Positions 10,735 through 57,926 of a stretch of DNA of 64,000 nt are shown piece by piece. The number at the start of each line of letters is the position of its first letter. Within the stretch, counting starts at the first letter, position 1. The notes below the pieces were generated by a model. The model searched no databases, was not told the origin of the DNA, and worked only from the letters and a program-made list of their open reading frames with translations. The translations under genes were made by a program, and so were the position numbers. The DNA comes from Bdellovibrionales bacterium (lineage in GTDB: Bacteria; Bdellovibrionota; Bdellovibrionia; Bdellovibrionales; UBA1609): the NCBI GenBank assembly GCA_965204055.1, contig OZ241967.1, forward strand, positions 1,318,737 to 1,382,736. The letters are read 5' to 3'.

Positions 10735-10755
10735 AACTATAATAAGGAGGTATTT

Positions 10756-24572: not shown

Positions 24573-24624
24573 TTTCCAACTTTTATAGACTCCCACGGCT
24601 AAAATCGTGGTGCTCTGTCTTTGA

Positions 24625-24773
24625 CCGCATAGTGATATGCCAGTCAAATGACCAGAGCAATAACCTTTAGACTTTGCGGAAACTCCGCATAGTGATATGC
24701 CAGTCAAATGACCAAAAGTGACCCCCCCGACGATTCAAGCCACTGGACCCGTAATATGACAGTCAAATGACCA
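24625..24773. repeat. three direct repeats of about 30 bp at 60-bp spacing upstream of the helicase gene
   Basis: ccgcatagtgatatgccagtcaaatgacca occurs at 24625-24654 and 24685-24714 (identical). A degenerate third copy lies at 24748-24773. Confidence 0.8.
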
Positions 24774-24911
24774 AAAGTCAATAAAAAAAGTTAGCAAAGT
24801 ACTACTCTCCTAAAGGGGCAACCCTCTGCCCCATCATCGCTACTGATCGCCCCAGAGATAAGTTTGACAGATGTTAATTTTAGAAAACGACAAAAAAGCT
24901 CTGATAAATTA

Positions 24912-27872: not shown

Positions 27873-30800
27873 TTAAAATAAGTCTAATTCTTTTCTTTCT
27901 TGTTCTTTTTGTTTTATTTGGTTTATTCTGTCCTGCAAATAAGATACTTGATTTTTGCAAAAATCCCTTATATTTTTATGTTTGTGATTTCGTAAATTCA
28001 TTATAGCGGTTTTTATATTTTCATAATAATACAAATAACTACCTTTCACTACACCAGGATTTCCTAAATTTGTGGAAATAGCCGATGTGATTTCTTCTTG
28101 ATCTCCATAATTATCAAACAAGAAATAAGCTAAGGAAGACCAAACATATAATTTTTTTTCTGTATCATGGTTTAAAAGGTCTATATTTTCAGCCAAAAAA
28201 GCAGGTATTGTGTCTGGTGCTTTTTTACACCATTTTTTAAGTGTTTCTTCATTGCACACAAGAGAAAGCAGGCTTTTTTTATATAGATTCAAATCGCTAC
28301 TTTTAAAGAGTTGCCTTATATTAAATTTATTCATATTTTTGTCATAGTTTTTCGCTATTTCTGATAACACTATATCAGGATATTTTTCAGTTATTTTTTT
28401 TAAACATTCTTTTATACATTCTTCAGAAAGTGGCAGATCAAAAAGAGAACTTTTGTAATAAAAAATTTTACTCACAAAAAATTTAGAAAAATTTTGAGCA
28501 AGAATAGAAAAAGGCTTTTTATCAGATAGGGAAAAAAGTTTAAAAACCAATGATTTGTAAGAATGATCACTATTTGTATAGTTACGGCGTATTTTATTTG
28601 AAGAAGGGATTTCTTTGAATAAGTTTTTTTGTGTTAATAGCTGGCAACATACAGCCGGCAAAAGCTTTTCTTCTTTTTTTGCAGAAGAATATACATAATA
28701 GCTATATATGTTTAAAGCGGACTTAACCCATTCTACACTGTTGTTTTTATTGGTCAAGAAAATTATAAGATTTTTCATTTTCTCCGGGCTTACATTTTGG
28801 CATTTTTGGCCAGTGGAAAGGTGCTTTAGCTCCCAAAACAATTCAGGAATGTCGGCAATTTGGCTTAACTGGGTTAAAAATTTTATAAGCCGTGTAATAT
28901 CTTTATCGCATAAATCCATACTGTGATAAGCCGGAAGTAAAAAGCGTTTATATTCTGCATGGTGAGCTATTTTGTCCAAAATTTTTTGTGTTTTTTCTGG
29001 TGCTTGAACATTTAATCCAGATATAAAACCGCATAAGAAGGAAGGATTAAAATCTTTATTCTTTTTCCATTGATTAATGTGGTTCAATAAATTATTCATC
29101 CATTGTATGATTTGATGATTATCAGATTTAATATTTCTTGTGTCTATATTGTGTTTTAATTTTTTTTTGTTATGGCTTGTTAGTGTTTTTGTTTTGGAAA
29201 AAGAATTTTTATTGATAAATAATTTTTTAGCAGTCTCTTTGGCAAAAATAATGGTGTTGGTTTGTTGTCCATGAAATAGTATCTTAAGAGTAGCTATTAT
29301 ATTTTCCGGTTTTGCTTTTTGGATGTAGCCTATAAAATCATCAATCAGCTTTGTAAAGGCTGGGCTGCACCCCTTATTATGTTTTTTAAGGTTATATATT
29401 TGATAGTCATCACTTTCTGTCACATATAAGCGAATTTTTTTATTTATATCCTGTTTTACATGTTGCAGTAATTCTAATATTTCTTTGGTTTTTTTTATTG
29501 TTTCTTTGGTTTCTTTGTTTGATCGATATTGTAAAAATTGCTCTATATTTTTTATAGCTAAAAGCCAAAAACCATCCGGTAAAAAATCCATAACCTGTGT
29601 AACTGTTTTTTTTACATCTTCATGCAAGGCTTTTATCTTTAAAAGAGGGGGCAAATAGTTTGCTATAGTATCTTCTGCCTTCTTTCTTATGTTGTTATCT
29701 AAGTCAGAATCTGTTGCAAATTCAGTTAAGTGTTTTAAAGCTCTTCTGTGGTAATTCCATAGTTCGCCATAAGTAGCCGGTCGCCATTCTGTGCGAGGCT
29801 CTATGATAGAGCTGTCATAATTTCCCATATAACCACCAAGTTGTGGCAAAGCTTTTTCTAAAGCTTGAACAGCTATTTCTTTTTGTTTGTCTGTTCCTTC
29901 TTGTGTTATTTCTTTAATAAGCTGAAATTTTGTTTCAGGATTGGCCTGAGTTCCAGATAACATAAGCTGAAAATAACTTATAAAAATACCTGTGGAATTA
30001 TTGCCATAATCTTCATTTTCTGCTGTCGCCAGCTTTAACAGTAACCTGGCTGAATCCAAGTAAAATGCTTTTTTAAAAGCCAATTTTTGTAAAATCCCTA
30101 TCCACTCTCTTCGGACGGAAGGCATACCGAAAAACGCTTTCATATTCAAAAGTTCTTCTATAGTTTTTTTTTCAATCACTTTCTCAAGAGAGCTTAAAAC
30201 TTCTTTGGGAGCCAACTTTGTTAGATTATTTACGCAAGAAGCCCCCCAGCCTGTGCTTAAAACTTTTTCCTGTCCAAACAAACCATCTGGCTGGCATAAT
30301 TGCTGAACTACTTTTTGCATTTCAGGATATGTATCCTGTAGTGGCTGTTTTCCTTCTAATTCAATAACTGGTTCTCTTGAAAACTCAGTCAAATAATAAA
30401 TTTGTTTGCAAAAGGATTTTCTTAATGCCTGGTGAGGGGCGTACTCACTTTCCCATTGTTCCAGTTCTTTTTTTTTCTGCTCTGAGAGATTTGCATATCT
30501 TTTTTTATCAGCCTCTTGCTTTTTTTTATACTCTTTTTTTTCCTCTTCTGATAACTGTTGATATTTTTGTTTATCAGAGTCTGCTTTTTTTTGAGACAGG
30601 TCTTTGGATATCTGATCCATACCCGAAAGCCATTTTATTATGGATTCAGGTGGTGTTTCTTGAATAAGCTCCATAGCCAACCAAAGGGCTAAAGGTTTGG
30701 GGCGCACTTGGAGAAAAAGGCCATATTGCTGGATAATTTTTCTTTTTTCAAAAAATTTTATTTTTTTGTAAAATTCATCATAATCCATTTTGGCTATATG

Positions 30801-33008: not shown

Positions 33009-34101
33009 TTTTTAAATCCTGCAAACGATTATTTAAAAAACGAATAAACGCTGTTTTTCTATTATCTGAAATTTCTGATTTTTTAGTTTCTTCTATTAAA
33101 AAGGGAAATTGTTTAATAATCTGCTCTATAAATTTCAAACAGGGATTTTCTAAATTCAATCTTTTAAATTCATACACATAGTCTTTTATTTTTGGTTCTT
33201 TAGAAGAGGTTGTCCAAATACAACCACTAATGTTAAACTGATGGCCAAGCATTTCTTCCGGTGTTATACCAAAATCGGATGGGTTATCATACATAGGAGC
33301 AAGCCTTTTCTTTTTGCCTGTGTCTATGATGCCTAAATTTCGGCCATGCCGATCTCTATTTCCAATAAAAGCATCAAAAAGACATATCTTAACAAATGTG
33401 TTAAGATCATTTGGTTGGTTTGTTTGTTGCTCTATAACATTGACAATGTTTTGGCAGTTATAATGTTTATCCCCTTTGGGTAAAAACTTGTAAATATGAT
33501 TCAGCACTCCCACGCAATCCTGCATAAAATTTTTAGTAACAAAAGCCATAAGGTTTTTTGGTTTTTCTTTTTGATTTGTTAATCTTTTACTTTCAGGTGG
33601 ATTTAACAAGCTTTGTTGGTAAGCTGTTAGAGGTAATTTTATATCTTGACGATGGGGTGCAGAAGTGCCAACAGAAGTAAGGTGTTCGGCTACATTTTCC
33701 TGTTCTGAAACAGAGCTACTTTGGTTTATGTGTGAAATATCATTGAATTGAATTAAATAATACGAAGGGACTTTCAAACCAAGATGAGAAGCTATTTGAT
33801 TGCAAAGGTATTCCATAGCTGGCAGATCAGGAAACTTTGATTCCTCTACTTTTAAGATGTATTGCCGGTCCCCTAATTTGGCTGAATATTTGTGATATCG
33901 ACCATGATAAAAACTGTCTTTATTTTTTGTAAATTTGACAGTAGGAGAAGAAGAGTAAGACCTTGCTTTTTTGAAATCCAGGTTATAAAATTCAGACGAA
34001 TCTTGCACGGCAAACCACTGTTGAAAGCAGTCTGTATGTAGACCGTAAATACTTTGATTTTTAATGGCTTCACGGCATTTAAAACATTTGATTTTTTTCA
34101 T
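33001..34101 (-). CDS. HipA-family Ser/Thr kinase (kinase core only) with an N-terminal Cys/His cluster
   Basis: FDAFIGNRDRHGRNLGII (GNxDxHxxN catalytic loop) and LAPMYDNPS (Mg-binding Asp) are HipA_C hallmarks. N-terminus CFKCREAIKNQSIYGLHTDC. The stop overlaps the start of the 1711-aa gene (ATGTATAA). Confidence 0.85.
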   Translation of the reverse strand: MKKIKCFKCREAIKNQSIYGLHTDCFQQWFAVQDSSEFYNLDFKKARSYSSSPTVKFTKNKDSFYHGRYHKYSAKLGDRQYILKVEESKFPDLPAMEYLCNQIASHLGLKVPSYYLIQFNDISHINQSSSVSEQENVAEHLTSVGTSAPHRQDIKLPLTAYQQSLLNPPESKRLTNQKEKPKNLMAFVTKNFMQDCVGVLNHIYKFLPKGDKHYNCQNIVNVIEQQTNQPNDLNTFVKICLFDAFIGNRDRHGRNLGIIDTGKKKRLAPMYDNPSDFGITPEEMLGHQFNISGCIWTTSSKEPKIKDYVYEFKRLNLENPCLKFIEQIIKQFPFLIEETKKSEISDNRKTAFIRFLNNRLQDLKNV

Positions 34102-34538: not shown

Positions 34539-35777
34539 TTGACTTGTAAAAATATATATGAACATCATAAAAAATACATGTTTATAACAAAGCTCACTTC
34601 CAAAAGTTCCTTTCTAAAATCCAAACACAGCCCCCCGGAGCAGTTAAGCTTTAGCGGTTCAGGTTGTTTGCCTTTTATTGTAACAGAAGGTATTAAATAC
34701 AGTGGATCTAAATTGAAACTTTTGCCTCATATTCTATCTATTGTAAAATCTTTACCTGTGAAACAGGTGTTTGATGGATTTTCTGGTACAACAAGAGTGA
34801 GCCAAGCTTTAGCTAAAAGTGGGTATCAGGTTATATCTAATGATATAGCTATATGGTCAAAAATTTTTGCAGAGTGTTATTTAAAAGGAAATGTAACAGC
34901 TGAATTACAGGACAAAATAAATTATCTAAACAGTTTAAAAGGCCTGGAGGGTTGGTTTACAAACCACTATGGCGGGGAGTCTAATAGGGGTTTGGCTGTG
35001 CATTCTGATGGAAAGAAAAAGATATGGCAAATTCATAATACCAAAAAATTAGACAGCATAAGGTTAGCAATAGATAAAATTGCAGAAACCAAAATCGAAA
35101 AATCCATTTTACTCACCAGTCTTATTTTAGCTTTAGATAAAGTGGATAATACTCTTGGACATTATGTTTCTTATTTAAGGAATTGGTCTCCTCGTTCTTT
35201 TAAAACAATGCAACTTAAAATGCCTTTAATAGAAAGTAGCAAAGGTCTTCATCGGGTTATGAATGAAAATATTTTTAAAGCACAAGTTAAAGTTAAGCCA
35301 GATCTTTCTTATTTTGATCCGCCTTATGGTTCCAATAATGAAAAAATGCCTCCTTCCCGTGTTCGTTATGCGGGTTATTATCATATTTGGAAAACTATTA
35401 TTTTAAATGATGAACCGGAGCTTTCAGGAAAAACAAATCGCCGGGCAGACTGCAAGGATTTAGAAACAAGTTCTGTATTTGAGGAATTTCGTAAAGATAA
35501 AAAAGGTAGGTTTATAGCTTTAAAAGCCATTGAGAAGTTAATTAAAGAATGTCGATCTCCATATATTTTGCTCTCTTACAGTAATGGGGGGCGAGCCACA
35601 AAAGAGGAGATTAGCGAAGTGATTCAGGATTGTTGTTCTAAAGTGCAGGTATTTACTATTGATTACAGAAAAAATGTTATGTCTAATATGCGTTGGACTT
35701 ATGATTGGATTAAAGAGAAAAAGGCTCCACATACAGAGTTTTTATTTTTAATGCAGAAAAGGGTTTTGGAGAAATGA
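34539..35777 (+). CDS. D12-class (Dam-like) N6-adenine DNA methyltransferase
   Basis: YSGSKLKLLPHI, FDGFSGTTRVSQAL (motif I) followed by FDPPYGS (motif IV). The real start may be the ATG at 34578. Confidence 0.85.
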   Translation: MTCKNIYEHHKKYMFITKLTSKSSFLKSKHSPPEQLSFSGSGCLPFIVTEGIKYSGSKLKLLPHILSIVKSLPVKQVFDGFSGTTRVSQALAKSGYQVISNDIAIWSKIFAECYLKGNVTAELQDKINYLNSLKGLEGWFTNHYGGESNRGLAVHSDGKKKIWQIHNTKKLDSIRLAIDKIAETKIEKSILLTSLILALDKVDNTLGHYVSYLRNWSPRSFKTMQLKMPLIESSKGLHRVMNENIFKAQVKVKPDLSYFDPPYGSNNEKMPPSRVRYAGYYHIWKTIILNDEPELSGKTNRRADCKDLETSSVFEEFRKDKKGRFIALKAIEKLIKECRSPYILLSYSNGGRATKEEISEVIQDCCSKVQVFTIDYRKNVMSNMRWTYDWIKEKKAPHTEFLFLMQKRVLEK

Positions 35778-35796
35778 AAAATCAAAAAACTTATTC

Positions 35797-35840
35797 TTAA
35801 GGTTATGTTTGCACACACGAAAAGCCTCTTCTATCTTCCA
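35797..35840 (-). mobile_element. 44-bp internal fragment of the IS1634-type transposase gene
   Basis: cttaaggttatgtttgcacacacgaaaagcctcttctatcttcca matches 9745-9788 with 1 mismatch. Confidence 0.6.
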
Positions 35841-35885
35841 ATAAAGTAGAAGGGCAGGTTTTACTTTTAACTGGAGGATATAAAA

Positions 35886-36227
35886 ATGATCAAAAAAAAG
35901 ACATCAAAAAAGCTAAACGGATACTTCGAAAGTATGCCAAATTTAAAGATGAAGAATAAAAAAAATAGGACAACCCAGTTTCATGCTGTTAAAAGAATGA
36001 AAGATAAAAAATATATTTCTAAAGCTTTATGGGAGTGTATTATATCTAATGACACAGTAGGGTTCAAAGAAATTATACGATCTCATTTGAATTTGGTCCA
36101 AAAAGAAGAATTTGCAAAAAAAACTGGTCTTTCCAAAAAAGACTTATCTTATATCGTATCCAAAAAAGGCAACCCTACTTTAGATAATATATCCAAAGTT
36201 ATTTATCATCTCCATACCAGCCTTTAA
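35886..36227 (+). CDS. HigA-type addiction-module antidote (HTH) protein, apparently without its toxin partner
   Basis: KKYISKALWECIISNDTVGFKEIIRSHLNL..FAKKTGLSKKDLSYIVSKKGNPTLDNISKVI fits the antidote family usually found downstream of a RelE/ParE-like killer. The upstream position is occupied by an IS fragment. Confidence 0.65.
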   Translation: MIKKKTSKKLNGYFESMPNLKMKNKKNRTTQFHAVKRMKDKKYISKALWECIISNDTVGFKEIIRSHLNLVQKEEFAKKTGLSKKDLSYIVSKKGNPTLDNISKVIYHLHTSL

Positions 36228-36247
36228 TCTGATTGGATGGATCGGGT

Positions 36248-36297
36248 TTGAAAAACGGACATTTACTTGGAATAAATTTGTTCATACATCTGTGGAG
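36248..36297 (-). mobile_element. IS3-family right-end fragment
   Basis: ttgaaaaacggacatttacttggaataaatttgttcatacatctgtgg aligns with the reverse complement of 41570-41612. Confidence 0.55.
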
Positions 36298-36368
36298 TTT
36301 TGATAAAATAGTTTTTTAGCGATTTTTCCTGAGATAAGACACCAGTGCCCATCAATATACCCACCTCC

Positions 36369-36989
36369 TTAAAATGAAGTTATAGCAGTATAGCTAATAA
36401 TATGGATTAAAGCTTCTCTAAACAAGAGTAAAGCCACTATGTAAGCAAAAACACGAATACCCAAGAGGACTTTATTATTTTTCACTAATTGCAGTAACTC
36501 TCGAACAAGAGAAGCTATTACTAAGTTTTCAAAATCTTTAAAATTCCGGCTACTCAACCATAAACCTATTTTTGCTCTCCAAGATTCTTGTGTAGCTGAT
36601 TGGATTTTTGTTTGTAAAACTTCTCTAACATTGGATTCAAAATTATTGATCAAAGATATGATATTCTTTAAAGATCGAAAAGAGGTTATTACTATATACA
36701 AAAAAATTATAGTCATCAAAGACAAACCACTATAATAAATGGGTTTTGAAAGCGGGAGAGTCAATAACAAAATACCCATTAAGGACCAGCAAATGTAAAT
36801 AATGGTTTTTTGATTTACCTGTTTTTTGAATTTTATAAACTGCTGTTGAATATGCTCTTTAATGTGTTTCTTAAACTCTTTTTCTATTTCTTTATCAGCT
36901 GTATTGGTAGCAAAATCCCATAGATCTTTAAAGGCTTGATATGCGGTAGAAGCAATATCAATGACAGCCCACATTTTCCACCACGCCAT
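36369..36989 (-). CDS. membrane protein (206 aa), unknown function
   Basis: Several hydrophobic segments. The start lies 3 nt after the stop of the ParA-like stub. Confidence 0.5.
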   Translation of the reverse strand: MAWWKMWAVIDIASTAYQAFKDLWDFATNTADKEIEKEFKKHIKEHIQQQFIKFKKQVNQKTIIYICWSLMGILLLTLPLSKPIYYSGLSLMTIIFLYIVITSFRSLKNIISLINNFESNVREVLQTKIQSATQESWRAKIGLWLSSRNFKDFENLVIASLVRELLQLVKNNKVLLGIRVFAYIVALLLFREALIHIISYTAITSF

Positions 36990-37139
36990 TTACTCCCCCT
37001 TACATTGAGGCTCGGCATCTACTATAAGAGTTTTTATTCCCTTATTAGCCAAAGTCCAGCCTAAGTTAAATGTAGTGGTGGTTTTACTCACCCCTCCTTT
37101 GTGATTAAACAAAGAAATTAACACTGGCTGGTGAGACAT
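36990..37139 (-). pseudogene. ParA-like ATPase N-terminal stub (49 aa)
   Basis: MSHQPVLISLFNHKGGVSKTTTTFNLGWTLANKGIKTLIVDAEPQC is nearly identical to the N-terminus of the 379-aa gene at 50180..51319, then stops. Confidence 0.7.
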
Positions 37140-37157
37140 ACCTCTTTCCTTTTTTAT

Positions 37158-37754
37158 CTATCTTATTTTTTGGCGGGTATAAGAAACATTCTGTGTATGT
37201 TCTATTGATAGATTATCTGTGTTGGTTCGAGTTAACAGCAATGTGTCTCCTTCCACCATAAAGGTATAAGACATGAACTTTACATGTTCCTCATTCCCAT
37301 CTACATCTTGCTTTTCCGATCTTAATTTAATAACAAGAGAATTGTCTCCTTCAAAATACACAACAGATTCTATTAACAGTTTATAGGGATCTTTCTCCGG
37401 CATTTTATCATAAGTTACCAGAGTAATTGTCCAGATAGGACCGTGTTCGGAAAACTCATAAATCAAAGGAGCACTTTCATCTGGGAGTTTAATCTCTACC
37501 TGGCCTTTATAAGGTTCTATATAGCCTATGGGACGGACAACAACACTGTCCGGATAAGGCTCTTTACTTAGGATGATATTTTGACGATGATCAGCCAGAT
37601 ATATGGCAACATTTTCCGGTATTATTTCTACAAACTCCCATGCACCCGGCAAGAGGTCTTTGACAGAATTTTGTTCATAAGAACCACCGGTAGCCAAAGT
37701 TACTTTTGAAAACCATATCAACAAAATAAAGACAAAAAGATTTTTGATAAACAT
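37158..37754 (-). CDS. secreted protein, unknown function
   Basis: ATG at 37754 preceded by aaggaggt; signal peptide MFIKNLFVFILLIWFSKVTLA. Confidence 0.6.
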   Translation of the reverse strand: MFIKNLFVFILLIWFSKVTLATGGSYEQNSVKDLLPGAWEFVEIIPENVAIYLADHRQNIILSKEPYPDSVVVRPIGYIEPYKGQVEIKLPDESAPLIYEFSEHGPIWTITLVTYDKMPEKDPYKLLIESVVYFEGDNSLVIKLRSEKQDVDGNEEHVKFMSYTFMVEGDTLLLTRTNTDNLSIEHTQNVSYTRQKIR

Positions 37755-38047
37755 CTCAGCACCTCCTTTTTTAGCTTTTGATCCTAAAGATTGCTTTTTT
37801 ATCACAACGATCTAAAATTTACAATATTTTATTGCTCTATGTCCTTTATTTGTTGTTCTACAGCCCTTAAGTGGGTGGAAAAATCCTTAAATCCTCATTT
37901 TGTTCTGCCATAACCCCTTATTTCTTTATTTTTATCTTTCTTTTATAGATTCCCACAGCTAAAGCCGTGCCGTGGTCCTTTGTCTTCAACCGCATAGTAA
38001 TACATCAATTAAGAGGCTAAAATTAGGGGATAAAAAAAGCTGGTACC

Positions 38048-38122
38048 TGACTACTCTCCCAGAGTGTTAAGCCCTCAAGAACCATCGCCACTGACAGGCT
38101 TAACTTCTATGTTAAGCCCCCC
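38048..38122 (-). repeat. copy of the 3' ~75 nt of the 5S rRNA gene (not a functional 5S)
   Basis: gctggtacctgactactctcccagagtgttaagccctcaagaaccatcgccactgacaggcttaacttctatgtt aligns with 52084-52158 of the genuine 5S gene with scattered mismatches. The 5' ~40 nt of 5S are missing. Confidence 0.75.
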
Positions 38123-39793: not shown

Positions 39794-40378
39794 TCAATCA
39801 ATGGAGGTTTTGGAGTTTTGATAAAGCCACTTTTTAGCGGTTCTACCTGATATAAGACACCAACGCCTATCAAAATACGCACCAATAATCCCCCCTGCTA
39901 CAGGCACCATTTTTCCTAAGTTTAAAATCCCTTTAGAACCAAACTTTGTAAATAACCTAAAACCTACCTGCTTGTTTATTTTTATTAAAATTTTTCCACT
40001 TATACTGGCAATCATTTGCTGAGTTAGCTTTTGACCTATTTTAATACCTACTGATTTTAAAATTTCCTTAATAGCATCACCTGTCAGGCAACAGTATATG
40101 ACAGTTTTAACTTCTTCTGATTTTATGTCATACCCGCTTATGTAAGCAATTTTAGCTATCATACGCAGTTGAATGTATAAAACAGCTGTTAATCCGGCTG
40201 GCACAGCCACAGGCAAAGTGATTGCTCCTCCTACTGAAGATATAAAACCAGTGGCTGTGCTTTTGGCCACAGCCCACTTTATTACCGAATCAATATGGGC
40301 ACAATGACATGTTCTATCTTGATCTGACTCTCCTAAACCCTTTTTATGATATTTTTCTCTTTCTGATCTGGCCCTCAT
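39794..40378 (-). CDS. EcsC-family protein, 5' end abutting or truncated by an IS3-family element
   Basis: GGAITLPVAVPAGLTAVLYIQLRMIAKIAYISGYD fits the EcsC pattern. The first codons lie inside the IS left inverted repeat. Confidence 0.55.
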   Translation of the reverse strand: MRARSEREKYHKKGLGESDQDRTCHCAHIDSVIKWAVAKSTATGFISSVGGAITLPVAVPAGLTAVLYIQLRMIAKIAYISGYDIKSEEVKTVIYCCLTGDAIKEILKSVGIKIGQKLTQQMIASISGKILIKINKQVGFRLFTKFGSKGILNLGKMVPVAGGIIGAYFDRRWCLISGRTAKKWLYQNSKTSID

Positions 40379-40442
40379 ATTCGGACATTTTACTAAGCAT
40401 AAGGCAGTGTGTTAAAAGTAAATTGTTTTAAGGAGGTGTTAG

Positions 40443-40727
40443 ATGAAAAATACAAAGAGGCGACGCTATTCAGAGTCGTTTAAAAAAGAGGCTGTGAGAA
40501 GGGTTCTGGAAGGTTCTCGCTCCTCTAATCGAGTTTCTCAGGAGTTGGGGATAGGCCAGCCCACTTTAAGTAAGTGGGTGAGACAGTTTAAGCAAGGTGG
40601 TCATTCTTCTTTTAATAAGGAGTCTGAGCGGGCTTTAAAACAGCTAAAAGCGGAGAACAAACGGCTTAAGGAAGAAAGAGACATTTTAAAAAAAGCCACC
40701 ATCTTCTTTGCCAGTCACGAAGGTTGA
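40443..40727 (+). CDS. IS3-family transposase OrfA (HTH)
   Basis: RRYSESFKKEAVRRV...GIGQPTLSKWVRQFK and a leucine-zipper-like tail. Confidence 0.9.
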   Translation: MKNTKRRRYSESFKKEAVRRVLEGSRSSNRVSQELGIGQPTLSKWVRQFKQGGHSSFNKESERALKQLKAENKRLKEERDILKKATIFFASHEG

Positions 40728-41593
40728 GATATGAGTTTATTTTTGTTCATAAAGACAAGTGGAGAGTAAGTGTAATGTGTGATGTTTTACAAGTATCTCG
40801 TAGTGGATATTATACTTGGTTGCCTTCAAGGGATCGTTTGAAAAAGACTCATAATCAGCTAAAGGGGGCGGTTTTGGCTTCGTGGCTTGATAGTGGTCGG
40901 GTGTATGGTTCTCGGCGTGTTGTGAAAGATTTAAAGGAGGAAAGAGGGATCTTTGTTTCAAAGAGCACAGTTCAGCCTGTTATGAGGGTTTTAGGCATCC
41001 GTTCTTCTTATCAGCAGAAGAAGTTCAGAAAAGCCTATCAGAGGGGGGAGATAGCCTCTTATCCTGCCAATGCTCTTAAGAGGGATTTTAAGCCGGAAAA
41101 CCCTAATCAGGTGTGGGCCAGTGACACTACTTTTATTAAGAGCTGTAAGGGGTGGGTTTATTTATGTGTGATTATGGATTTATTTTCCAAGTTTATAGTG
41201 GGTTGGTCTGTGGGAGATAAGAACAACTCAGACTTGGTGGAAGAGGCTTTACAGTTAGCTCTTTACAGTAGAGGGTATCCAAGGGGTGTATTGTTTCACT
41301 CTGACAGAGGTTCTGAATATAGCTCTTATCAGATTTACAAGAGGTTACAACAATACCATTTAACAGCTTCCATGAGTCGTAAAGGAAACTGTTGGGATAA
41401 TGCTCCGGTTGAGAGCTTTTTTAAAACTTTGAAAGTGGAATTGATAAATAAGATAAATTCAAAAAGACTTAATTTGGAAGAGATAAAAAAGGAGTGTTTT
41501 AACTATATTGAGGGCTTTTACAACACAAAGCGGATTCACTCCAGCCTTGACAACAAAAGCCCACAGATGTATGAACAAACTTATTCCAAGTAA
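40724..41593 (+). CDS. IS3-family transposase OrfB (DDE integrase core)
   Basis: NQVWASDTTF, HSDRGSEYSS, GNCWDNAPVESFF, YNTKRIHSSL. Confidence 0.9.
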   Translation: MRYEFIFVHKDKWRVSVMCDVLQVSRSGYYTWLPSRDRLKKTHNQLKGAVLASWLDSGRVYGSRRVVKDLKEERGIFVSKSTVQPVMRVLGIRSSYQQKKFRKAYQRGEIASYPANALKRDFKPENPNQVWASDTTFIKSCKGWVYLCVIMDLFSKFIVGWSVGDKNNSDLVEEALQLALYSRGYPRGVLFHSDRGSEYSSYQIYKRLQQYHLTASMSRKGNCWDNAPVESFFKTLKVELINKINSKRLNLEEIKKECFNYIEGFYNTKRIHSSLDNKSPQMYEQTYSK

Positions 41594-41753
41594 ACTGTCC
41601 GTTTTTCAGGCCCAATCCATTCTTTTTGAACTTCTTCCTCAACAGATAATACCCCCGGCAAACCTTTCACAGCATTATCATATATAGTATTGAGAACTTT
41701 AATGACTGTGTCTTTTCTTAATTTCATATTAACCTCTTTAAAATGAAACTATA

Positions 41754-47517: not shown

Positions 47518-47682
47518 ATTTAAACAATCGGTTGCCGATCAAAAAAACTTAATAGAAAAAAATGTGAAAATGACAAAAAATTAATAAAAAACGAAAAAAA
47601 ACACGCAACCTGAGAACCCTTAATTAAAAACTGTCATTCAGAACCGATCCCAACCAGTAGCTAAAATTAGGGGATAAAAAAA

Positions 47683-47722
47683 GCTGGTATCTGGCTACTC
47701 TCCCAGAGTGTTAGCCCTCAAG
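47683..47722 (-). repeat. copy of the 3' ~40 nt of the 5S rRNA gene
   Basis: gctggtatctggctactctcccagagtgttagccctcaagg aligns with 52084-52124. It shares the preceding gctaaaattaggggataaaaaaa with the 38048 copy. Confidence 0.7.
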
Positions 47723-47824
47723 GAAATGCTAATATTTTCTATAAAGACTGCACTGTTTTTCTTTTCAGGGATTAAAAATTGTAAAAAAATTCAAAGAAAC
47801 TGTTTAAACACCGATAAAAGGATT

Positions 47825-48559
47825 ATGAAAGCTTTTTTGATCATTGTTTTGTTTCCGTCTGTGGCTTATGGTTTTTTTAAAGACATTCCATATAAGAAGA
47901 CTGAAATATGCGAAAAAATAAAACCCGATTATGACAAAGCCCGTGCCGATATGGCCAGAGCCATAGCTAATAAAGAAAAAGCCTATGCCTATAAGGAAAA
48001 AGCCTATGCCTCTTTTAAAAAAGCCACAGCTAATAAAGAAAAAGCCTATGCCTATAAGGAAAAAGCCTATGCCTCTTTTAAAAAAGCCACAGCTAATAAA
48101 GAAAAAGCCGATGCCGATATGGCTAAAGCTTATATCAAAGAGGCTTATATCAAAACCGATGCTAATATAGCCAAAGCCTATTCCTCTTATAAAAGAACCA
48201 TAGCCAATCAAGAAAAAGCCTATGCCTATAAGGAAAAAGCCTATGCCTCTTTTAAAAAAGCCACAGCTAATAAAGAAAAAGCCTATACCTATATGTCTAA
48301 AACTTATATCAAAGCCGATGCTGATATGGCCAGAGCCACAGCTAATAAAGAAAAAGCATGGGGAGATATAAACAAAGCTTATAAAGACGCTTTAAAATAC
48401 AAATGTTTTAAACAATCCACCGCCTGTAATGAGTCAATTAAAGATATGACAAAAACCAATACCGATATATCTAAAGCCATTGCCAACATAAAAAAGTATT
48501 GTTCTGGAAATAATAAAGTCGGGGGTTCTGGTAAAGACACCAGCCAGAAGACTTTGTAA
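47825..48559 (+). CDS. secreted repeat protein (KEKAYAYKEKAYASFKKATAN repeats)
   Basis: Signal peptide MKAFLIIVLFPSVAYG. Three near-identical 21-aa units plus degenerate copies. Confidence 0.65.
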   Translation: MKAFLIIVLFPSVAYGFFKDIPYKKTEICEKIKPDYDKARADMARAIANKEKAYAYKEKAYASFKKATANKEKAYAYKEKAYASFKKATANKEKADADMAKAYIKEAYIKTDANIAKAYSSYKRTIANQEKAYAYKEKAYASFKKATANKEKAYTYMSKTYIKADADMARATANKEKAWGDINKAYKDALKYKCFKQSTACNESIKDMTKTNTDISKAIANIKKYCSGNNKVGGSGKDTSQKTL

Positions 48560-48627: not shown

Positions 48628-50103
48628 AGTCGGCCCTGAACAAATACTATTTTGTTAAAAAGCAGGTTGATTTTTTATAAAATTATAATTTTGAATCTGT
48701 TTTTTCAACCAGCAAAAAAAGAACAAAAAGAAAGACCGCATGATCTTTCTCATATTAAACGCACTTGCTGCTAAAATAGGATTGATCTTATCTCCTTCTA
48801 TCCCATGCAAATAGTTTACCCCCATACGATGCTCCTGTTTAATATGACCTATCACCGGCTCAATCGCCGTCCTCCTTTTTAAAGCTCTCTTCAATTTAGG
48901 AGATAATCGCCTCATCCCTGATATAAACACACTCTTTCCTAATGGATGATATGCCTTACCCTTATACCCTCTATCTACAAATATCTCTCTGACAGACTTA
49001 CCCGACATCCTCTCTACCTGCTCTATCGCCAGCCCCAAGGTCTTGCCGTCAAAAGGATTGCCAAAAAAAGACTTAGCACCTACTATCCAATTACCCTTAC
49101 TGGTCACTGTAAAACTCACCTTGTTACCAAATTCATATCGCTTGTGTGCCTTACCTTTTGATAAACACTCCACATAAGGCTCATGCACACTATACACCTT
49201 ATCCTTGCTCAATCTTTCCTGAGAAAATACCCGCCGACTTAAATTCAATATATCTTGTAACTTATCTGATGGAGCACAACACTTTCTGTCTATGTCCCGA
49301 ATAACACGACCCAAAAAATTCCTCTGCCTCTTGACTGAAACTTGCCCCCTTTTATACTGACGAGCATGAAAATAACGGGCAGACTTAATCATCTCCTCCT
49401 TGCCTTTGAACTTGTAGCTTTGACGAAGCTTCACCCCCTCTTCTGTCGCTACTTTTACCAACTTCTCACGAGACTTGTTGATTAACTTTGAATCCACAGG
49501 ATAACAAATATTCTTACTCTGAACTGTTGTATCTACTATCACTTGCTTATACTCGCTAACTCGTAATAAACCTAACTTTTGAGCTACACTTAGAGTCTCC
49601 TTCAACAACTCCTCTGCTCCCACCTCCTCTATACGATGCCTCCAACGAGTCAATGAACTGGCATCAATGCTCAGCTTATGCTGAAAATACTCAAACCCAC
49701 AAAAATACTGCCAATAAGGATCACTCAACAACCTATCCACTACAGCCTCATCCGATAAATCAAATACATACTTCAGGTAAATTAAACCCACAACTAATCG
49801 CACAGGAAGAGCAGGACGCCCCCTGTCTGAAGGAAAAAAAGTCTTAAACTTCCTCTCAAATTTTGACCAATCTATACAATCTGCTAATTGAACAAGACCC
49901 ATTTTCATATTTAAAAAATCTACTAAACGGGGCCGACCTAATTCCAATTGCTCACAATCTCTTTCAGACTTCTTAGGCTTCATTTTTACCTCCAAATTTG
50001 CAAGGTTTTTAAACCTCTTTATATTTTCCTTGCAAATATTTTCCTTGCAAATTATAAAAAAATCAAGTGATAACAATGCGTTAACATTTATTCAGGGCCG
50101 ACT
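48628..50103 (-). mobile_element. intact IS5-family insertion sequence (about 1.48 kb)
   Basis: Inverted repeats agtcggccctgaacaaata / catttattcagggccgact. Flanked by a direct repeat ACTT (or TACTTA if the ends are drawn 1-2 nt inward). Confidence 0.9.
48655..49983 (-). CDS. IS5-family DDE transposase (442 aa from the ATG at 49983)
   Basis: VDTTVQSKNICYPVDSKL, FVDRGYKG, IEPVIGHIKQEHRMGVNYLHG. Confidence 0.9.
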   Translation of the reverse strand: MKPKKSERDCEQLELGRPRLVDFLNMKMGLVQLADCIDWSKFERKFKTFFPSDRGRPALPVRLVVGLIYLKYVFDLSDEAVVDRLLSDPYWQYFCGFEYFQHKLSIDASSLTRWRHRIEEVGAEELLKETLSVAQKLGLLRVSEYKQVIVDTTVQSKNICYPVDSKLINKSREKLVKVATEEGVKLRQSYKFKGKEEMIKSARYFHARQYKRGQVSVKRQRNFLGRVIRDIDRKCCAPSDKLQDILNLSRRVFSQERLSKDKVYSVHEPYVECLSKGKAHKRYEFGNKVSFTVTSKGNWIVGAKSFFGNPFDGKTLGLAIEQVERMSGKSVREIFVDRGYKGKAYHPLGKSVFISGMRRLSPKLKRALKRRTAIEPVIGHIKQEHRMGVNYLHGIEGDKINPILAASAFNMRKIMRSFFLFFFCWLKKQIQNYNFIKNQPAF

Positions 50104-50179: not shown

Positions 50180-51319
50180 TTATTTAGAAAAACGGAATTG
50201 CTTGCTGGTGGCATAATCATCTTCAATAAGTTTACACACTCTAACAGCTAAACGATCAAATAGTTGATTAAATTGGTTTTGATTTTCTTTCATTGTTTTT
50301 AACACCTTACCTTTAAAGTTTAGCTCATCATCAGTTAATTCAAAAATAGGTTTGCTGTATTTTTGCGATAAAGCAATTAAAGAATTAAAATCGCCAATAC
50401 TAATCAAATTATATGGAGACTCATCAGTAATGTATTTTACAAATGAATTTTCATCAATAACCATATTTTTTTTGCTCAAACTCTTAGCAAGCACATCTTT
50501 AGAAGCCTTTTGAATTTTATCAATCCACTCTTTAAAAGATTTAGCAATACCTTGTTTTTGCTTTTCTTCTTTTATATTCCAAAAATCAAAATCAAACAGA
50601 CCTTCTTTAATTCTTCTTGTATAAGGTCTGTATTTTTGTGAAATGATACCTAACATACGAGGTGGACTTTCCGGCAAAGCGTTGGTTATGGATTGTTCCC
50701 TAAATTCTTTAAAATCTTCATGCCATTTTGGTAACATGCTTCCTAAAGACTGTATAGCCTGATACGAAAAAAAGTCAGGAGAAGTGGGAATAAGAAAATA
50801 ATCACTACTCATTAAAATACAGCGATTTACAGCTCCTGAATTAGGACTCATATCCACTAAAATAATCTCACACCCATACTTAATTGCCGTTTTTCTAATG
50901 ATGGTGTGAAAAGCACCAATAAATTGCTTCGTAAAAGGCAAAAATTTTCCGCTGGTGATACCTGTTGCCAAAGATATATCTAAATCTGACATGTCGAGGT
51001 GACCTGCGACAAGCAATAAATTATTATTTAAAGTTTCACAAGGCTTAACCGCTTTAGGGGTTACACTATCCCCTGATGTTATTTCTGATATTTTTGCATG
51101 AATATTATCGTTGTTGGCACTATTATAAAAAGCATCCATATCATTTTTTTGTTGCAATCCTAATACATAAGTTGTCAAATTGCATTGAGGATCTGCGTCC
51201 ACTACAAGAGTCTTTATTCCTTTATTGGCAAAAGTCCAGCCTAAGTTAAATGTGGTGGTAGTTTTGCTGACCCCACCTTTGTGATTAAATAAAGAAATTA
51301 AAACTGGCTGTTGAGACAT
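50180..51319 (-). CDS. ParA/Soj-family ATPase with a long C-terminal extension (379 aa)
   Basis: Deviant Walker A FNHKGGVSKTTT, VVDADPQCN, ILVDMSPN. Confidence 0.8.
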   Translation of the reverse strand: MSQQPVLISLFNHKGGVSKTTTTFNLGWTFANKGIKTLVVDADPQCNLTTYVLGLQQKNDMDAFYNSANNDNIHAKISEITSGDSVTPKAVKPCETLNNNLLLVAGHLDMSDLDISLATGITSGKFLPFTKQFIGAFHTIIRKTAIKYGCEIILVDMSPNSGAVNRCILMSSDYFLIPTSPDFFSYQAIQSLGSMLPKWHEDFKEFREQSITNALPESPPRMLGIISQKYRPYTRRIKEGLFDFDFWNIKEEKQKQGIAKSFKEWIDKIQKASKDVLAKSLSKKNMVIDENSFVKYITDESPYNLISIGDFNSLIALSQKYSKPIFELTDDELNFKGKVLKTMKENQNQFNQLFDRLAVRVCKLIEDDYATSKQFRFSK

Positions 51320-51487
51320 ACTTCTCTCCTTTTTGATCTAAATTTTTATCTATCTTATTTTTTCCACTTTAACAAATATTATTTTTTCTCTCTGAAAACT
51401 GGGCCAGATTTTTTCAATCTTTTCTTAACTATTTTCATAAAATGAGTTCTTATAGGGTCCGACATAATATCCTCCTCAATAAAAAAA

Positions 51488-51535
51488 GCCGGTGCCCGGC
51501 TACTCTCCCAGAGGGTCAGCCCTCAAGTATCATCT
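51488..51535 (-). repeat. copy of the 3' ~48 nt of the 5S rRNA gene, remodelled into a terminator-like hairpin
   Basis: gccggtgcccggctactctcccagagggtcagccctcaagtatcatc aligns with 52084-52131. On the minus strand agccgg-gca-ccggct is followed by T7, just downstream of the VOC gene. Confidence 0.7.
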
Positions 51536-51573
51536 GGATCACACTAAAAAAGTGGACCAATTGCTATGTCCAT

Positions 51574-51993
51574 TTAATGGAAATATCTATCCTCCCAAGG
51601 ATCAGTGCCCTCCCAAGTCTCAAATTCAAGGGATATGTTATTAGGATCTTTTATATAAAACCTATAAGGCCCTTTTTTCTTTGAACCACCAATCAATTCT
51701 GTCATATTATCAGCTTTCCTTTGTCTCAGTTTCTGATGCAGTGCCTTCACTTCTGATTGTGATGATAACTCAAACCCAAAATGATGGATAACTTTAGAAT
51801 AGTCTACAAGAGCTTGTTCTGAGGGCTCAAACATCACAGTAAAACCACCAATTTTATAATTAGGACGGTTTTTATCAGTGGATCTATTTTTCACTCCAAG
51901 CACTTTCTCCCAAAAATGTCTTGTCTCCAACATTTTAGCGGTATAAAATACAATATGAGTTAACTCCGCATGACCTAGTTCCGCTGTTTTCAT
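51574..51993 (-). CDS. VOC/glyoxalase-family protein
   Basis: 139 aa; THIVFYT...FWEKVLG and HHFGFEL fit the vicinal-oxygen-chelate fold pattern. Confidence 0.7.
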   Translation of the reverse strand: MKTAELGHAELTHIVFYTAKMLETRHFWEKVLGVKNRSTDKNRPNYKIGGFTVMFEPSEQALVDYSKVIHHFGFELSSQSEVKALHQKLRQRKADNMTELIGGSKKKGPYRFYIKDPNNISLEFETWEGTDPWEDRYFH

Positions 51994-52083
51994 AATAACC
52001 CGCTTTTTTTATTTCTTCAGCTATCCTTATGGTTGATCATAATTCAATATATTTCCAGAAAAGCAAAATAGTCAATAAAAAAA

Positions 52084-52199
52084 GCTGGTATCGTGCTACT
52101 CTCCCAGAGGGTCAGCCCTCAAGTACCATCGCCGCTGACAGGCTTAACTTCTGTGTTCGAGATGGGAACAGGTGTGGCCCCGTCGCTATTGACACCAGC
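52084..52199 (-). rRNA. rrf: 5S ribosomal RNA
   Basis: The minus strand reads gctggtgtcaatagcgacggggccacacctgttcccatctcgaacacagaagttaagcctgtcagcggcgatggtacttgaggg...ctgggagagtagcacgataccagc. These are canonical 5S helices and loop motifs. Confidence 0.95.
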
Positions 52200-52210
52200 A
52201 ATTCTTTTTT

Positions 52211-52343
52211 TTAACAACATCATTCAATATCATTTACCCACACTATGACTGGATTCCCCCAGACGCGAGAATGACAACTTTTAACATCATTCAATATCAT
52301 TTACCCACACTATGACTGGATTCCCCCAGACGCGGGAATGACA
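52211..52343. repeat. two tandem ~65-bp repeats in the 23S-5S spacer
   Basis: ttaaca(ac)atcattcaatatcatttacccacactatgactggattcccccagacgcg(a/g)gaatgaca occurs at 52211-52276 and 52281-52343. A third partial gcgggaatgaca lies at 52394-52405. Confidence 0.9.
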
Positions 52344-52483
52344 TATAAAAAAAGTAACTCACAGACTCCCACAGAAGGCAAAAAACAACCTTTGCGGGAA
52401 TGACATATCAAAAGTCTGTAACTCAAAACATTCTTAGCTGAGTCCTTATATAACAAGGACTGTCTATTCAGTCAGAAAAATGT

Positions 52484-55499
<3,016 letters not shown>

Positions 55500-56122
55500 A
55501 TAAACTGACTGAAACACTAAGAATGATTTCAGTTCAGACTCTTTTTTGCCCTAAAAATTTAATAAACCAACCTGATTTTGAACAGTTTTTTAGCTTTAGA
55601 GGCTTTTTCCCCTATTTTTAAGCTATGAAATATAATTCAAACCAGATCAGTATAAAAGAACAAATAATAAAAATGTGAGTTACTTTACACTTGTGCTCTG
55701 TATCTACATAAAAATATGGACACAATTACCCTTTCCGCCCCCGCGGAAACGGCACACAAGCGTTTCTAAATAATATTCAGTTGTCAAAGAGCTTGCCCCT
55801 ATAGCTATAAAATAGCAAAGAGCACCCCTGGAGCTTTTACTCACAGGGAAGTCAATCATAAACAATCATAGAGCTAAAAAGCAACCTAAAAAAAGTAAAA
55901 TATAAAAATCTTTTTTGAATTAGTATTTTCTGCGGAAATTTGGAAGAATGGGGTTTGTTTTAATTAAATTCTTTTGAAAATACTTTTTCTCTTGTCTCTT
56001 TGCATAGCTTCAATTATGGAAACTCTTTTTACTGGTGTTACTTTTTTTTGTTCTGCTTTGTTATTCTCCGCGGTGTTAGTCGATGCGGGTAACTCCGATA
56101 ATGGACGCAACCCTGCGTTTTT

Positions 56123-56252
56123 CCCGACTTCAGCATAACGCAATGCAATAAATGAGTAATTTCGGATACTTACAAATTTCTGGTGCCACACATTTTTAAG
56201 ATTTGGCTCAAGAAGTGGAGATAAATTTAGACACTCTTTTAAGACCTAAGGC
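56123..56252 (-). mobile_element. solo end fragment of the IS1634-type element
   Basis: About 130 bp collinear with 9374-9503 (cccgactt...tctggtgccacacatttttaagattt...ggagataaatttagacactcttttaag). Confidence 0.7.
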
Positions 56253-56284
56253 TTATATAGCTCCTCTTTTTGATGAAAGAATTT

Positions 56285-56497
56285 TCAGGAGTTGTTTTTA
56301 AGCTTTTCAATCTCTACCTCAGAAAGCCCGGTGATTTTAGAAATAACAGAAAATTTAAAATTGCTTTTCAGCATATTTAAAGCTACTTCTTCTATACCTT
56401 CTGATCTGCCTTTTTCCATGCCCTTTTGCATACCTTCTGCTCTGCCTTTTTCTAAGCCTTCATCAAAGGCGTAAGCTTTCTCCGCCTTCTGATCCAT
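56285..56497 (-). pseudogene. Rpn/YhgA-family C-terminal fragment
   Basis: AEKAYAFDEGLEKGRAEG...ALNMLKSNFKFSVISKITGLSEVEIEKLKNNS matches only the last ~70 aa of the intact 351-aa protein. Confidence 0.65.
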
Positions 56498-56598
56498 AAG
56501 AGAGCTAATATTTTAAGGAAAAGGATACTACTGCGATATTCCAACAACCCCTCGCCTTTTAAAGCGAGGGATAAAAACCTCCTGATATGTTTTTTCTC

Positions 56599-57210
56599 TC
56601 ACTCACTTAACTCTGGTTCCATTACACTGATTATTTTTTCATAATGTGTCCAAGCTCCTAACAACCCTGTGTTTATGCAATCATCCACTGTGGAATACAA
56701 AAAAGGTGAAATTAGGAAAGTCTCCTCAGATCCAAAAAGCTTTTTTAAAGAGTCTACTTTTTTTATCACACAAGCAAATTCAAAAAAACCTTCCACCACT
56801 CCGTAACCTACCCTATACATACTTATATATCTAAAACCAAAGAGGCACTTTTGTTTTTTTAAAGAACATTTAAAAGTATGGAATTTAAAATCAAAAGTTC
56901 CTTCACACCAAGAGTCCGCACAAAGAGAATCAATCCCCTTTAATAAAGTTTTTTCCTCTTCAGTAGTAAGATCGTTTTTTCCTGGGATAACCTGTTCCTC
57001 CTGAGTAGCACCATCTGAAAGCATAGAGCTTTCTCTCTGCTCTAAAAGCTCTTCTCTCAACACATTTTGGGGTTTTATACCTTGTTCATGTTCCACCTTA
57101 GTTGCAGAAACATCATCTGTCCAGGAATACGCAGACGGCGGATGGCCTAACCACTGAAACAACAAAGCAATAAACCCTATAAAACATTTACATAACACTC
57201 TTTTTTTCAT
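56599..57210 (-). CDS. secreted Cys-rich protein, unknown function
   Basis: ATG at 57210 with RBS taaggagg; signal peptide MKKRVLCKCFIGFIALLFQWLG. Confidence 0.6.
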   Translation of the reverse strand: MKKRVLCKCFIGFIALLFQWLGHPPSAYSWTDDVSATKVEHEQGIKPQNVLREELLEQRESSMLSDGATQEEQVIPGKNDLTTEEEKTLLKGIDSLCADSWCEGTFDFKFHTFKCSLKKQKCLFGFRYISMYRVGYGVVEGFFEFACVIKKVDSLKKLFGSEETFLISPFLYSTVDDCINTGLLGAWTHYEKIISVMEPELSE

Positions 57211-57673
57211 TATAACCTCCTTATGGTTTAAGCCTTTTCTTAAATATCCCATTGGATAGATCAAAAAAAGCTCATTATGGTTTATCCTTTTTCAACTTAA
57301 ACAGAGACCTACCCTGCCAAGGAAAAAGGCTTCTCTCTTTCTTACATGCAAAATCGATTCCAATATTTTTTACGCTATGCTTATAGTGTGAAAAATTTTC
57401 ACCTATATACTTTTCAGGCAAATGATTTTGAAGCAGACGGTCATCCTTTAAATATTTTTATTATATATTTGAAATGAAAAAGATTTTAAAACAAAAAAAC
57501 CTACCAGGCTTGATATAAGTTAAGATTTAAAAAAATCTAAAAAGTATTCTATTTTTTTTTATGGTAAATTATAGTAAGGGCTTTTTCATAGGTGATTATG
57601 ATAAAAAAATTCGGAATCTGAATCCAAAATGCTGTTTTTTTGCAAAAATTTCCTGTTTTGTTTTTGCAATAAT

Positions 57674-57820
57674 TAGTCAGTCGTGAAAAAGTATGTTGCA
57701 ACAAAGTAAACATGGCTTACTTTGTCCTAAAACAGGCGAGATTCCCGCTCAAGGCGGGACTGTAAAGCCAAGTACTTGGCTTTACAGTTGGAGATGAACA
57801 GGGTCTATCACGGGCCAATA
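57674..57820. mobile_element. MITE copy A
   Basis: Starts tagtcagtcgtgaaaaag. Contains attcccgctcaaggcggga and ctgtaaagccaagtacttggctttacag palindromes. It is the reverse complement of copy B. Confidence 0.7.
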
Positions 57821-57926
57821 ATGAAAAAATAAGAGAAAACATAAAACAATAATAAAGAGGAACAATAGTTGAAACAACAGAATTTTTTCACAAACCACTA
57901 ACTAAACTAAGATAAGGAAGACTCAA

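Follow-up and report, generated by a model that had tools for sequence, protein, structure and literature searches.

The 3′ end of a 5S rRNA gene as a candidate recurrent insertion site for recombinase-less gene cassettes in a Bdellovibrionales bacterium

Mobile DNA in bacteria classically lands in tRNA and tmRNA genes. Islands found there, including those that grow by accretion of cis-mobilizable elements (CIMEs) and integrative and mobilizable elements (IMEs), show direct repeats of the 3′ end of a stable-RNA gene that itself stays intact, recurrent insertion at one site that builds tandem arrays delimited by att copies, accessory and defence cargo, empty/occupied polymorphism and clear horizontal transfer. 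We describe a locus with these same traits in a 64-kb stretch of a Bdellovibrionales bacterium (positions 1,318,737 to 1,382,736 of contig OZ241967.1, assembly GCA_965204055.1; the whole stretch is called the window in what follows), where the RNA gene is the 5S gene of a 23S-5S operon. Unlike the tRNA and tmRNA islands, no unit of any array encodes an integrase; one unit is a single 0.6-kb gene, for a protein of the vicinal oxygen chelate (VOC)/glyoxalase superfamily; the copy borne by the element appears to be the distal one; and the joint appears to lie at the run of T residues (T-run) that follows the RNA gene, not inside that gene.

Two systems of recombinase-less modules are also close. 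Integron cassettes likewise lack a recombinase, can be as small as one gene, bring their own 3′ site and are stacked at a fixed chromosomal site, and one cassette can stand beside different neighbors in different genomes. The locus departs from integrons in that the window and the related loci examined hold no match to intI or the Phage_integrase family; its sites derive from 5S and lack the imperfect palindromes that carry RYYYAAC/GTTRRRY cores in integrons (at the junction the sequence is (A/G)TTGAC(T), as GTTGACT or ATTGA, and the sixth base, C, breaks GTTRRRY); and many of its units are multigene, with genes in both orientations and promoters of their own. XerCD-dependent elements, i.e. 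the integrative mobile elements exploiting Xer (IMEXs) at dif and the pdif modules of Acinetobacter plasmids, are again recombinase-less modules between repeated sites, rely on a host recombinase encoded elsewhere (a reliance only postulated here) and accumulate as arrays at one chromosomal site. The site here is instead the 5S 3′ end with its terminator, and the window gave no match within 3 mismatches to a dif consensus that is of the E. coli type and may not be the one used in this lineage.

In full-text literature searches no bacterial element turned up for which a 5S gene serves as att site; the one cargo element documented there to target 5S is the fungal Starship ‘Voyager’, which inserts in 5S rDNA and has its own tyrosine recombinase, the ‘captain’ (bioRxiv 10.1101/2021.12.13.472469). 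Voyager too is a cargo-carrying mobile element with a conserved 5S gene as its specific target, but it is a giant element of a eukaryote (tens to hundreds of kb), and its insertion 20 bp from the 5S 5′ end is predicted to inactivate one of ~45 copies (bioRxiv 10.1101/2021.12.13.472469), whereas the present units carry no recombinase and leave their 5S gene intact.

The window contains an intact 5S gene, whose helix I 3′ strand leads directly into a T7 run, downstream of a full-length 23S gene (Table 1). The 64 kb contain no 16S, tRNA or tmRNA gene; the 23S-5S pair is therefore not linked to 16S, and a tRNA or tmRNA gene is ruled out as the target. A preliminary description, made from the DNA letters, had noted that the 3′ end of the 5S gene and its A/T run recur ~596 bp away. 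Repeat search and alignment bear this out: the direct repeat is 59 nt long, 3 nt wider at one end than first described, and comprises the last 48 nt of 5S, the T7 run and ATTGA, with 53 of 59 bases the same (90% identity). The copies agree at every base of a 29-nt core, CTTGAGGGCTGACCCTCTGGGAGAGTAGC; shuffled sequence is expected to give 0.00 such matches. The 139-aa VOC gene is, as had been stated, the only open reading frame (ORF) of credible size between the copies, and it scores above the Pfam PF00903 cut-off (E=1.7e-5; 25.6 bits against 20.6; profile positions 2-121 of 121); its subfamily matches, to FosB and glyoxalase I, are weak (E~0.01). The promoter-like site of the gene has its -35 box abutting the 5S T-run, and is conserved in the two other genomes that carry the gene. 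A 16-nt inverted repeat, ACCCGCTTTTTTTATT (51998-52013), stands directly 5′ of the VOC start codon and is the complement (94%) of the GC-plus-T-run ends of both 5S-type sites (52074-52089 and 51478-51493). The 23S-5S spacer holds a 61-nt tandem repeat in two copies of 98% identity (52216-52343), with a third partial piece at 52394-52413.

BLAST and an nhmmer profile built from the copies identified three more 5S-3′ copies in the window beyond the VOC-linked one (c1), namely c2, c3 and a degenerate c4; other cassettes flanked by 5S 3′ segments, which the preliminary description had envisaged, are thus present. Its picture of a one-gene cassette holds in that the VOC gene stands alone between its two copies, but the unit is one in an array of at least four insertions and not a lone one. 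All four partial copies and the 5S gene are on the minus strand, within the 27 kb downstream of 5S, and no copy occurs across the other 37 kb of the window. The 29-nt core has a third match, with two mismatches, at 47694-47722; c2 and c3 have the right flank ATCCCCTAATTTTAGC in common. Every copy retains the 3′ end and T-run and has a variable 5′ border, the 5S-derived duplications measuring 42-97 nt and always ending at the T-run. The Rfam 5S threshold is reached solely at the intact gene, since the copies are without the 5′ 60-95 nt and so without the full three-domain 5S structure. The motif TTGACTTT-N4-6-CATTTGACT has no occurrence other than immediately behind the T-runs of 5S or 5S-like sequences, and therefore the repeated site reaches ~20 nt past the T-run.

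Homologues of the VOC protein form only 4 clusters among 5.8 billion proteins. The 139-aa form is carried on three large contigs, those of the window genome (2.31 Mb), L004 (1.93 Mb) and L005 (2.18 Mb); outside these carriers the same protein collection has three distant clusters only. The more distant homologues L001 (76%), L002 (58%) and L003 have no rRNA gene and no 5S-like fragment nearby. Two further genomes were found by other routes: L006 (OZ251471.1, ‘MAG: Bdellovibrionales bacterium’) by its 5S pattern, and L013, a 2.02-Mb circular contig, through its ParA homologue. The 23S-5S pair is present in 5/5 genomes, with 23S 94-97% identical among them, and the same architecture recurs in independent single-contig assemblies, which speaks against an assembly artefact. 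The degenerate 23-nt 5S pattern had one match only in the genome collection, in OZ251471.1; because it matches once in that whole genome, it suggests one 5S gene per genome in L006, which would fit an insertion that preserves the gene. In metagenomes the pattern gave three unrelated high-GC chance matches, none with a 5S gene, and a viral scan gave no match, so that no phage attP was found.

Read in the direction of 5S transcription, the region after the 5S gene differs from genome to genome. L013 has the ParA cassette; the window has VOC, c1 and the ParA cassette; L005 has VOC, c1 and a methyltransferase cassette; L004 has a 109-aa ORF, a copy, GmrSD-ParA-EcsC, a copy, VOC, a copy, a methyltransferase (MTase)-282aa-ParA set, a copy, and continues onward; and L006 has two ORFs, a degenerate copy, FGE-sulfatase, a degenerate copy and PIF1 (the copies at 5811-5862 and 7005-7055). 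One VOC cassette thus appears in three neighbor contexts (window, L005 and L004). The 5S 3′ end of L013, together with its flank and ParA gene (9786-11144), aligns at 89% with c1, its flank and ParA in the window (51534-50176), and L013, where the ParA cassette directly follows 5S, is therefore an unoccupied site for VOC; L006 likewise has the 5S gene with no VOC after it. The L004 copy that precedes VOC carries the flank that in L005 follows the full 5S gene, so the 4.3 kb between 5S and VOC in L004, missing from L005, represent an independent insertion at the same point. The comparison of empty and occupied sites among relatives thus favors insertion, and these sites, the L004 insertion and the contrast in identity described next support the original proposal of insertion at the 3′ end of a stable-RNA gene.

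Nucleotide identity between the window and L005 is 98.6% for the VOC gene (codons differ synonymously in 4 cases and non-synonymously in 2), 94.5% for 23S, 93% for 5S and 56% for the 23S-5S spacer; between the window and L004 the corresponding values are 95.5%, 94.3%, 94% and 50%. DnaJ amino acid identity to the window is 66% for L005 and 68% for L006, and in genomes that DnaJ places nearer to the window (73-81%) the protein database shows no VOC. Vertical inheritance of VOC is excluded because a protein-coding gene has diverged less than the adjoining rRNA; by this comparison the VOC cassette arrived horizontally at the same site in different lineages. That VOC might be ancestral at this position, which would have argued against insertion, is ruled out by the contrast of VOC with 23S and DnaJ and by the empty sites of L006 and L013. 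The ParA genes of the window and L013, with 92% nucleotide identity, are also closer than the core genome predicts.

The VOC block, 97-99% identical in the three loci, begins where the T-run ends, with TTGACTAT (in L004 and L005, 17 nt further on), and closes with GATGATACTTGAGGGCTGAC inside c1; its joints map to the repeat. As judged from these alignments, the left joint is between the 5S tail and TTGACTAT, and the right joint would be either within c1 or within the T-run plus TTGA(C), at most 15 nt. The three VOC-linked copies have in common the tail GCCGG(G/T)C(A/C)CC(G/A)GC, which differs at no fewer than 3 positions from all resident 5S tails, GCACGA(T/C)ACC(A/G)GC; the tail of every functional 5S gene fits the 5′ strand of that gene (GCTGG/CCAGC in the window and GCCGG/CCGGC in the other genomes). 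Since its tail is shared among VOC-linked copies and distinct from resident 5S tails, c1 is most likely the cassette’s own 3′ element, travelling with VOC.

The c1 tail, GCCGGGCACCGGC, with its T7 run also forms a terminator-like hairpin (51487-51501, minus strand; AGCCGG-GCA-CCGGCT, then T7), which was found by a terminator scan, has 6 pairs (5 GC), a loop of 3 and -7.2 kcal/mol, and is built from the mutated 5S helix-I strand. It resembles a Rho-independent terminator in its 6-bp GC-rich stem, 3-nt loop and T7 directly after VOC, and c1 in the window is predicted to act as the intrinsic terminator of VOC as well. The preliminary description had taken the distal copy to be a duplicate that mutated into a clean hairpin; the hairpin and T7 are indeed there, but a tail common to three genomes is not that of a freshly mutated resident duplicate. 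Perfect in the window, the stem has one mismatch each in L004 and L005, and among all copies checked a clean hairpin at the T-run occurs only in window c1 and at L004 6021-6087. Because the hairpin is mismatched in L004 and L005 and absent at the T-run in most other copies, the repeat did not originate as a terminator, and termination is a role that the element has taken on secondarily.

The reading that we favor, with confidence a little above even, is that a site-specific recombinase encoded elsewhere has repeatedly placed cassettes lacking a recombinase at the 3′ end and terminator of 5S. A small mobile cassette would consist of VOC, its own -10 region and a 3′ element mimicking the last ~50 nt of 5S plus the T-run. 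It inserted at the 5S 3′ end and terminator, leaving the 5S gene undamaged, and the two repeats would be the recombination junctions, or att-type sites. The same site was used repeatedly, each insertion being marked by a 5S-3′ copy, and the co-oriented copies, at least 4 in number, that divide 27 kb of horizontally exchanged accessory and defence genes would then reflect tandem accretion at a stable-RNA gene, with related genomes holding different cassette sets at the same place. The cassettes would be non-autonomous, because tyrosine and serine recombinase genes are missing from all the arrays. The repeats, the array, the empty and occupied sites, horizontal transfer and the mapping of the joints to the repeat are documented by the sequences; what we infer is that a trans-acting enzyme, encoded elsewhere in the genome or on a helper element, carries out site-specific recombination and recognizes the 5S-3′/T-run/TTGAC segment. 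Set beside islands in stable-RNA genes generally, the locus has RNA-3′-end repeats with an intact gene, an empty site and a horizontal origin, and has no internal integrase beside att.

Several observations weigh against this reading. No tyrosine or serine recombinase is encoded among the 46 ORFs scanned with Pfam across the window, in line with the earlier statement that no integrase lies nearby, or in ~90 kb of flanks of related arrays (L004, L005, L011, L012 and L013, by Pfam annotation); only IS5, IS3 (rve), DDE_Tnp_1 and DDE_3 transposases and PDDEXK_2 turned up in the window ORFs and related arrays (IS, insertion sequence). The recombinase in trans is purely what we infer, and no evidence was found of excised circles or of polymorphism of the site within a population. 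The left borders of the copies vary, at 5S position ~32 (L011), 59 (c3), 86 (c1) and 90-97 (others), some cassettes have no distal copy (e.g. in the L013 array, and in L005 after its ParA gene), and IS elements scramble the array further. The middle of c1 has the lineage-specific bases of the resident 5S gene, CTCTGGGAG in the window and CTCAGGAAG in L004 and L005. From the pattern of bases, we attribute this to probable gene conversion in short patches, with the 5S gene, 600 bp distant, as donor; it is the main uncertainty on the crossover position, and gene conversion between repeats could in principle do more of the work. Lastly, the comparison covers five lineages only (the window, L004, L005, L006 and L013), all metagenome-assembled.

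The main rival is recombination by homology or microhomology alone, a lesser possibility that we nevertheless take seriously. The 60-85-nt 5S-3′/T-run/TTGAC modules would serve as portable homology for RecA-type or microhomology-mediated events with no dedicated recombinase; cassettes would be looped out and reinserted, or swapped after DNA uptake, or circles with a captured piece of 5S would integrate in the manner of Campbell. The lack of a recombinase in any array fits this, the identical tracts of 29-30 nt within the repeats would provide the substrate, homology of arbitrary extent easily explains the variable left borders, and the middle of c1, evolving in concert with the resident 5S gene, points to homologous exchange between copies. 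A crossover in the long central tract would, however, swap tails, and in three genomes the 5S tails and VOC-linked tails stay unswapped. Minimal homology for RecA recombination is ~25-50 nt, and the alternative joint (T-run plus TTGA, at most 15 nt) is too short for it to be efficient. Donor and recipient 5S genes are moreover 6-7% divergent, and use of exactly the same insertion point in lineages at 66% DnaJ identity suggests site recognition.

Improbable, in our estimate, is an origin of the copies, through deletion of 5′ portions, from ancient tandem 5S genes (rrl-rrf-rrf) or from extra rRNA operons that decayed. VOC and its fellow genes would then lie between the copies by accident, and later allelic exchange would account for the high VOC identity. 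Extra 5S genes are known in some bacteria, long 5S stretches are kept in c3 (84 nt) and in L011, where a partial 5S of 97 nt, belonging to another 5S sequence type, stands between a HipA module and a PIF1 gene, and the degenerate copies (c4 and the two of L006) look old. Random decay would not leave all copies with exactly the 3′ end and T-run and without the 5′ part, nor does it suit that all are co-oriented, immediately downstream of one functional 5S gene, or that copy-bounded cassettes are cleanly present or absent (L013 versus window, L005 versus L004). Left borders outside 5S are shared as well, GGC/AGGGCTGA in L004 and L006 and CCA/GATGATAC in all VOC copies, and because such borders or derived tails are shared, the copies propagate as cassette ends and not as independent pseudogenes.

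A transposon with target-site duplication was rejected: the cassette ends have no terminal inverted repeats, the VOC unit has no transposase, and the duplications are variable and not of a fixed short length. Chance or convergence, i.e. a generic terminator of hairpin and T-run with no more than a likeness to the 5S end (as c1 does resemble an intrinsic terminator), is so improbable that we dismiss it, given the 53 of 59 matching positions with a perfect 29-nt tract where 0.00 was expected, which also removes the concern that the similarity is too weak for homology, the extension of the homology to 5S helix IV/V sequence outside the terminator hairpin, and the lack of a hairpin beside the T-run in most other copies.

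If repeated insertion by a trans-acting recombinase is correct, the 5S site represents a new class of attachment site, at which recombinase-less single-gene cassettes can be exchanged between very divergent lineages, and it implies a recombinase of novel specificity. A more speculative extension, doubtful but possible, is that this deep-branching Bdellovibrionales-related lineage may possess an integron-like gene-capture platform, in which the 5S 3′ end and terminator would act as attI, a 5S-mimicking equivalent of attC would double as terminator, and a recombinase in trans would insert cassettes behind the strongly transcribed rRNA operon, the array being exchanged between lineages down to 66% DnaJ identity. 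As a rule for annotation, the region downstream of rrf in this clade is a hypervariable defence island that can be parsed by its 5S-3′ fragments.

Table 1. Positions of the rRNA genes, repeat copies and selected genes in the window
Feature	Position	Strand	Evidence
23S rRNA gene	52483-55498	-	Rfam RF02541, 2803 bits, full length
5S rRNA gene, intact	52083-52199	-	Rfam RF00001, 102 bits, model positions 1-120
Proximal repeat (5S last 48 nt, T7, ATTGA), putative attachment region	52072-52130	-	Repeat search, alignments
Promoter-like site for VOC, TTGACT-18-TATATT	52046-52075	-	Promoter scan, 10/12 matches
VOC/glyoxalase-superfamily gene, 139 aa, cassette cargo	51574-51993	-	ORF list, Pfam PF00903
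5S-3′ copy c1, VOC-linked in three genomes	51476-51534	-	59 nt; nhmmer E=9e-21
ParA-like ATPase gene, first of next cassette	50180-51319	-	Pfam AAA_31/CbiA; 92.1% nt identity to L013 10001-11140
IS5-family transposase, ordinary IS inside array	48655-50076	-	NCBIfam transpos_IS5_1 E=1.6e-146; Pfam DUF772
5S-3′ copy c2, then T7	47674-47722	-	49 nt, 92% identity; E=6e-17
5S-3′ copy c3, begins at 5S position ~59	38030-38113	-	84 nt, 88% identity; E=5e-17
5S-3′ copy c4, degenerate, + T7 + TTGACTTTTGGTCATTTGACT; array distal end	24776-24826	-	nhmmer E=1.2e-4, motif search
PIF1-type helicase gene with WYL domain, conserved distal flank of array	22902-24707	-	Pfam; 89% nt identity to L006 7259-8000
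Whole cassette array, 27 kb, 3′ of 5S gene	24776-52082	-	ORF list + Pfam

The cargo of the array begins with VOC, the ParA-like gene, IS5, a 493-aa protein, SPFH, an MNT/HEPN pair and an EcsC-like gene (PDC-S29) split by IS3, and continues with a type II restriction endonuclease and MTase, a D12 MTase, HipA with a 1711-aa protein, PDDEXK_2 and an ankyrin protein. Homologues of the ParA-like protein in plasmids and P22-like phages have only ~40% identity, which is uninformative, and the gene was dropped as a pointer to plasmid or phage origin. A small ORF with a strong Shine-Dalgarno sequence directly after c1 (~51379-51465) is probably no gene, being unconserved in L013. The 283-aa ORF at 47708-48559, between the IS5 copy and c2, is without a family match and is made up mostly of tandem repeats of the KEKAYAYKEKAYASFKKATAN type. 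The EcsC-like gene (39794-41728; PADLOC candidate PDC-S29, E=9e-64) is interrupted by an IS3-family insertion at 40443-41593, the ‘rve’ match at 40724-41593 being this IS3 copy, and is intact in L013 (11864-12562).

Two sets of genes recur. A HipA-like kinase gene stands beside that of a giant 1635-1711-aa protein, which has a HipA N-terminal coupling domain and a helix-turn-helix at its start, in the window (27873-34101), L011 (164-6052) and L013 (15368-21140); the pair is 82-85% conserved in nucleotides in the three genomes and always near a 5S-linked array. A three-gene module of a D12 adenine methyltransferase, an unannotated 282-286-aa ORF and a ~383-aa ParA-like ATPase is found in L004 (10876-14074), L005 (11557-14762) and the window (34539-37171), where it is rearranged, with a truncated ParA 5′ piece at 37000-37171; it may be a restriction-modification-like or defence unit.

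At the distal end of the array, a c4-type junction also precedes the PIF1 homologue of L006. Each L006 cassette opens with the same promoter and leader module of ~150-200 nt (4244-4400, 5847-6061 and 7039-7260), with a Shine-Dalgarno sequence and a conserved hairpin, CACGGTTTTAGCCGTG, making the repeated junction unit much longer than its 5S-like part. In a close strain of the window genome (DnaJ 98%), the L010 sequence begins just 1.7 kb before the PIF1 gene, and comparison of L012 1-10000 with window 52000-57900 shows the sigma-54 activator neighborhood there without the 23S-5S block. Collinearity of L012 with the window ends near window position 56524, beside a 70-aa ORF like the Yae1_N/HTH_Rpn_C end of PDDEXK_2 (Rpn-like) genes, and this end point suggests that the rRNA-plus-array block may have been relocated by recombination at Rpn-like repeats. 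Past the array, window 1040-8932 holds a further defence cluster with type I restriction-modification HsdM and HsdS, a TIR-domain protein and a 799-aa AAA_13 ATPase.

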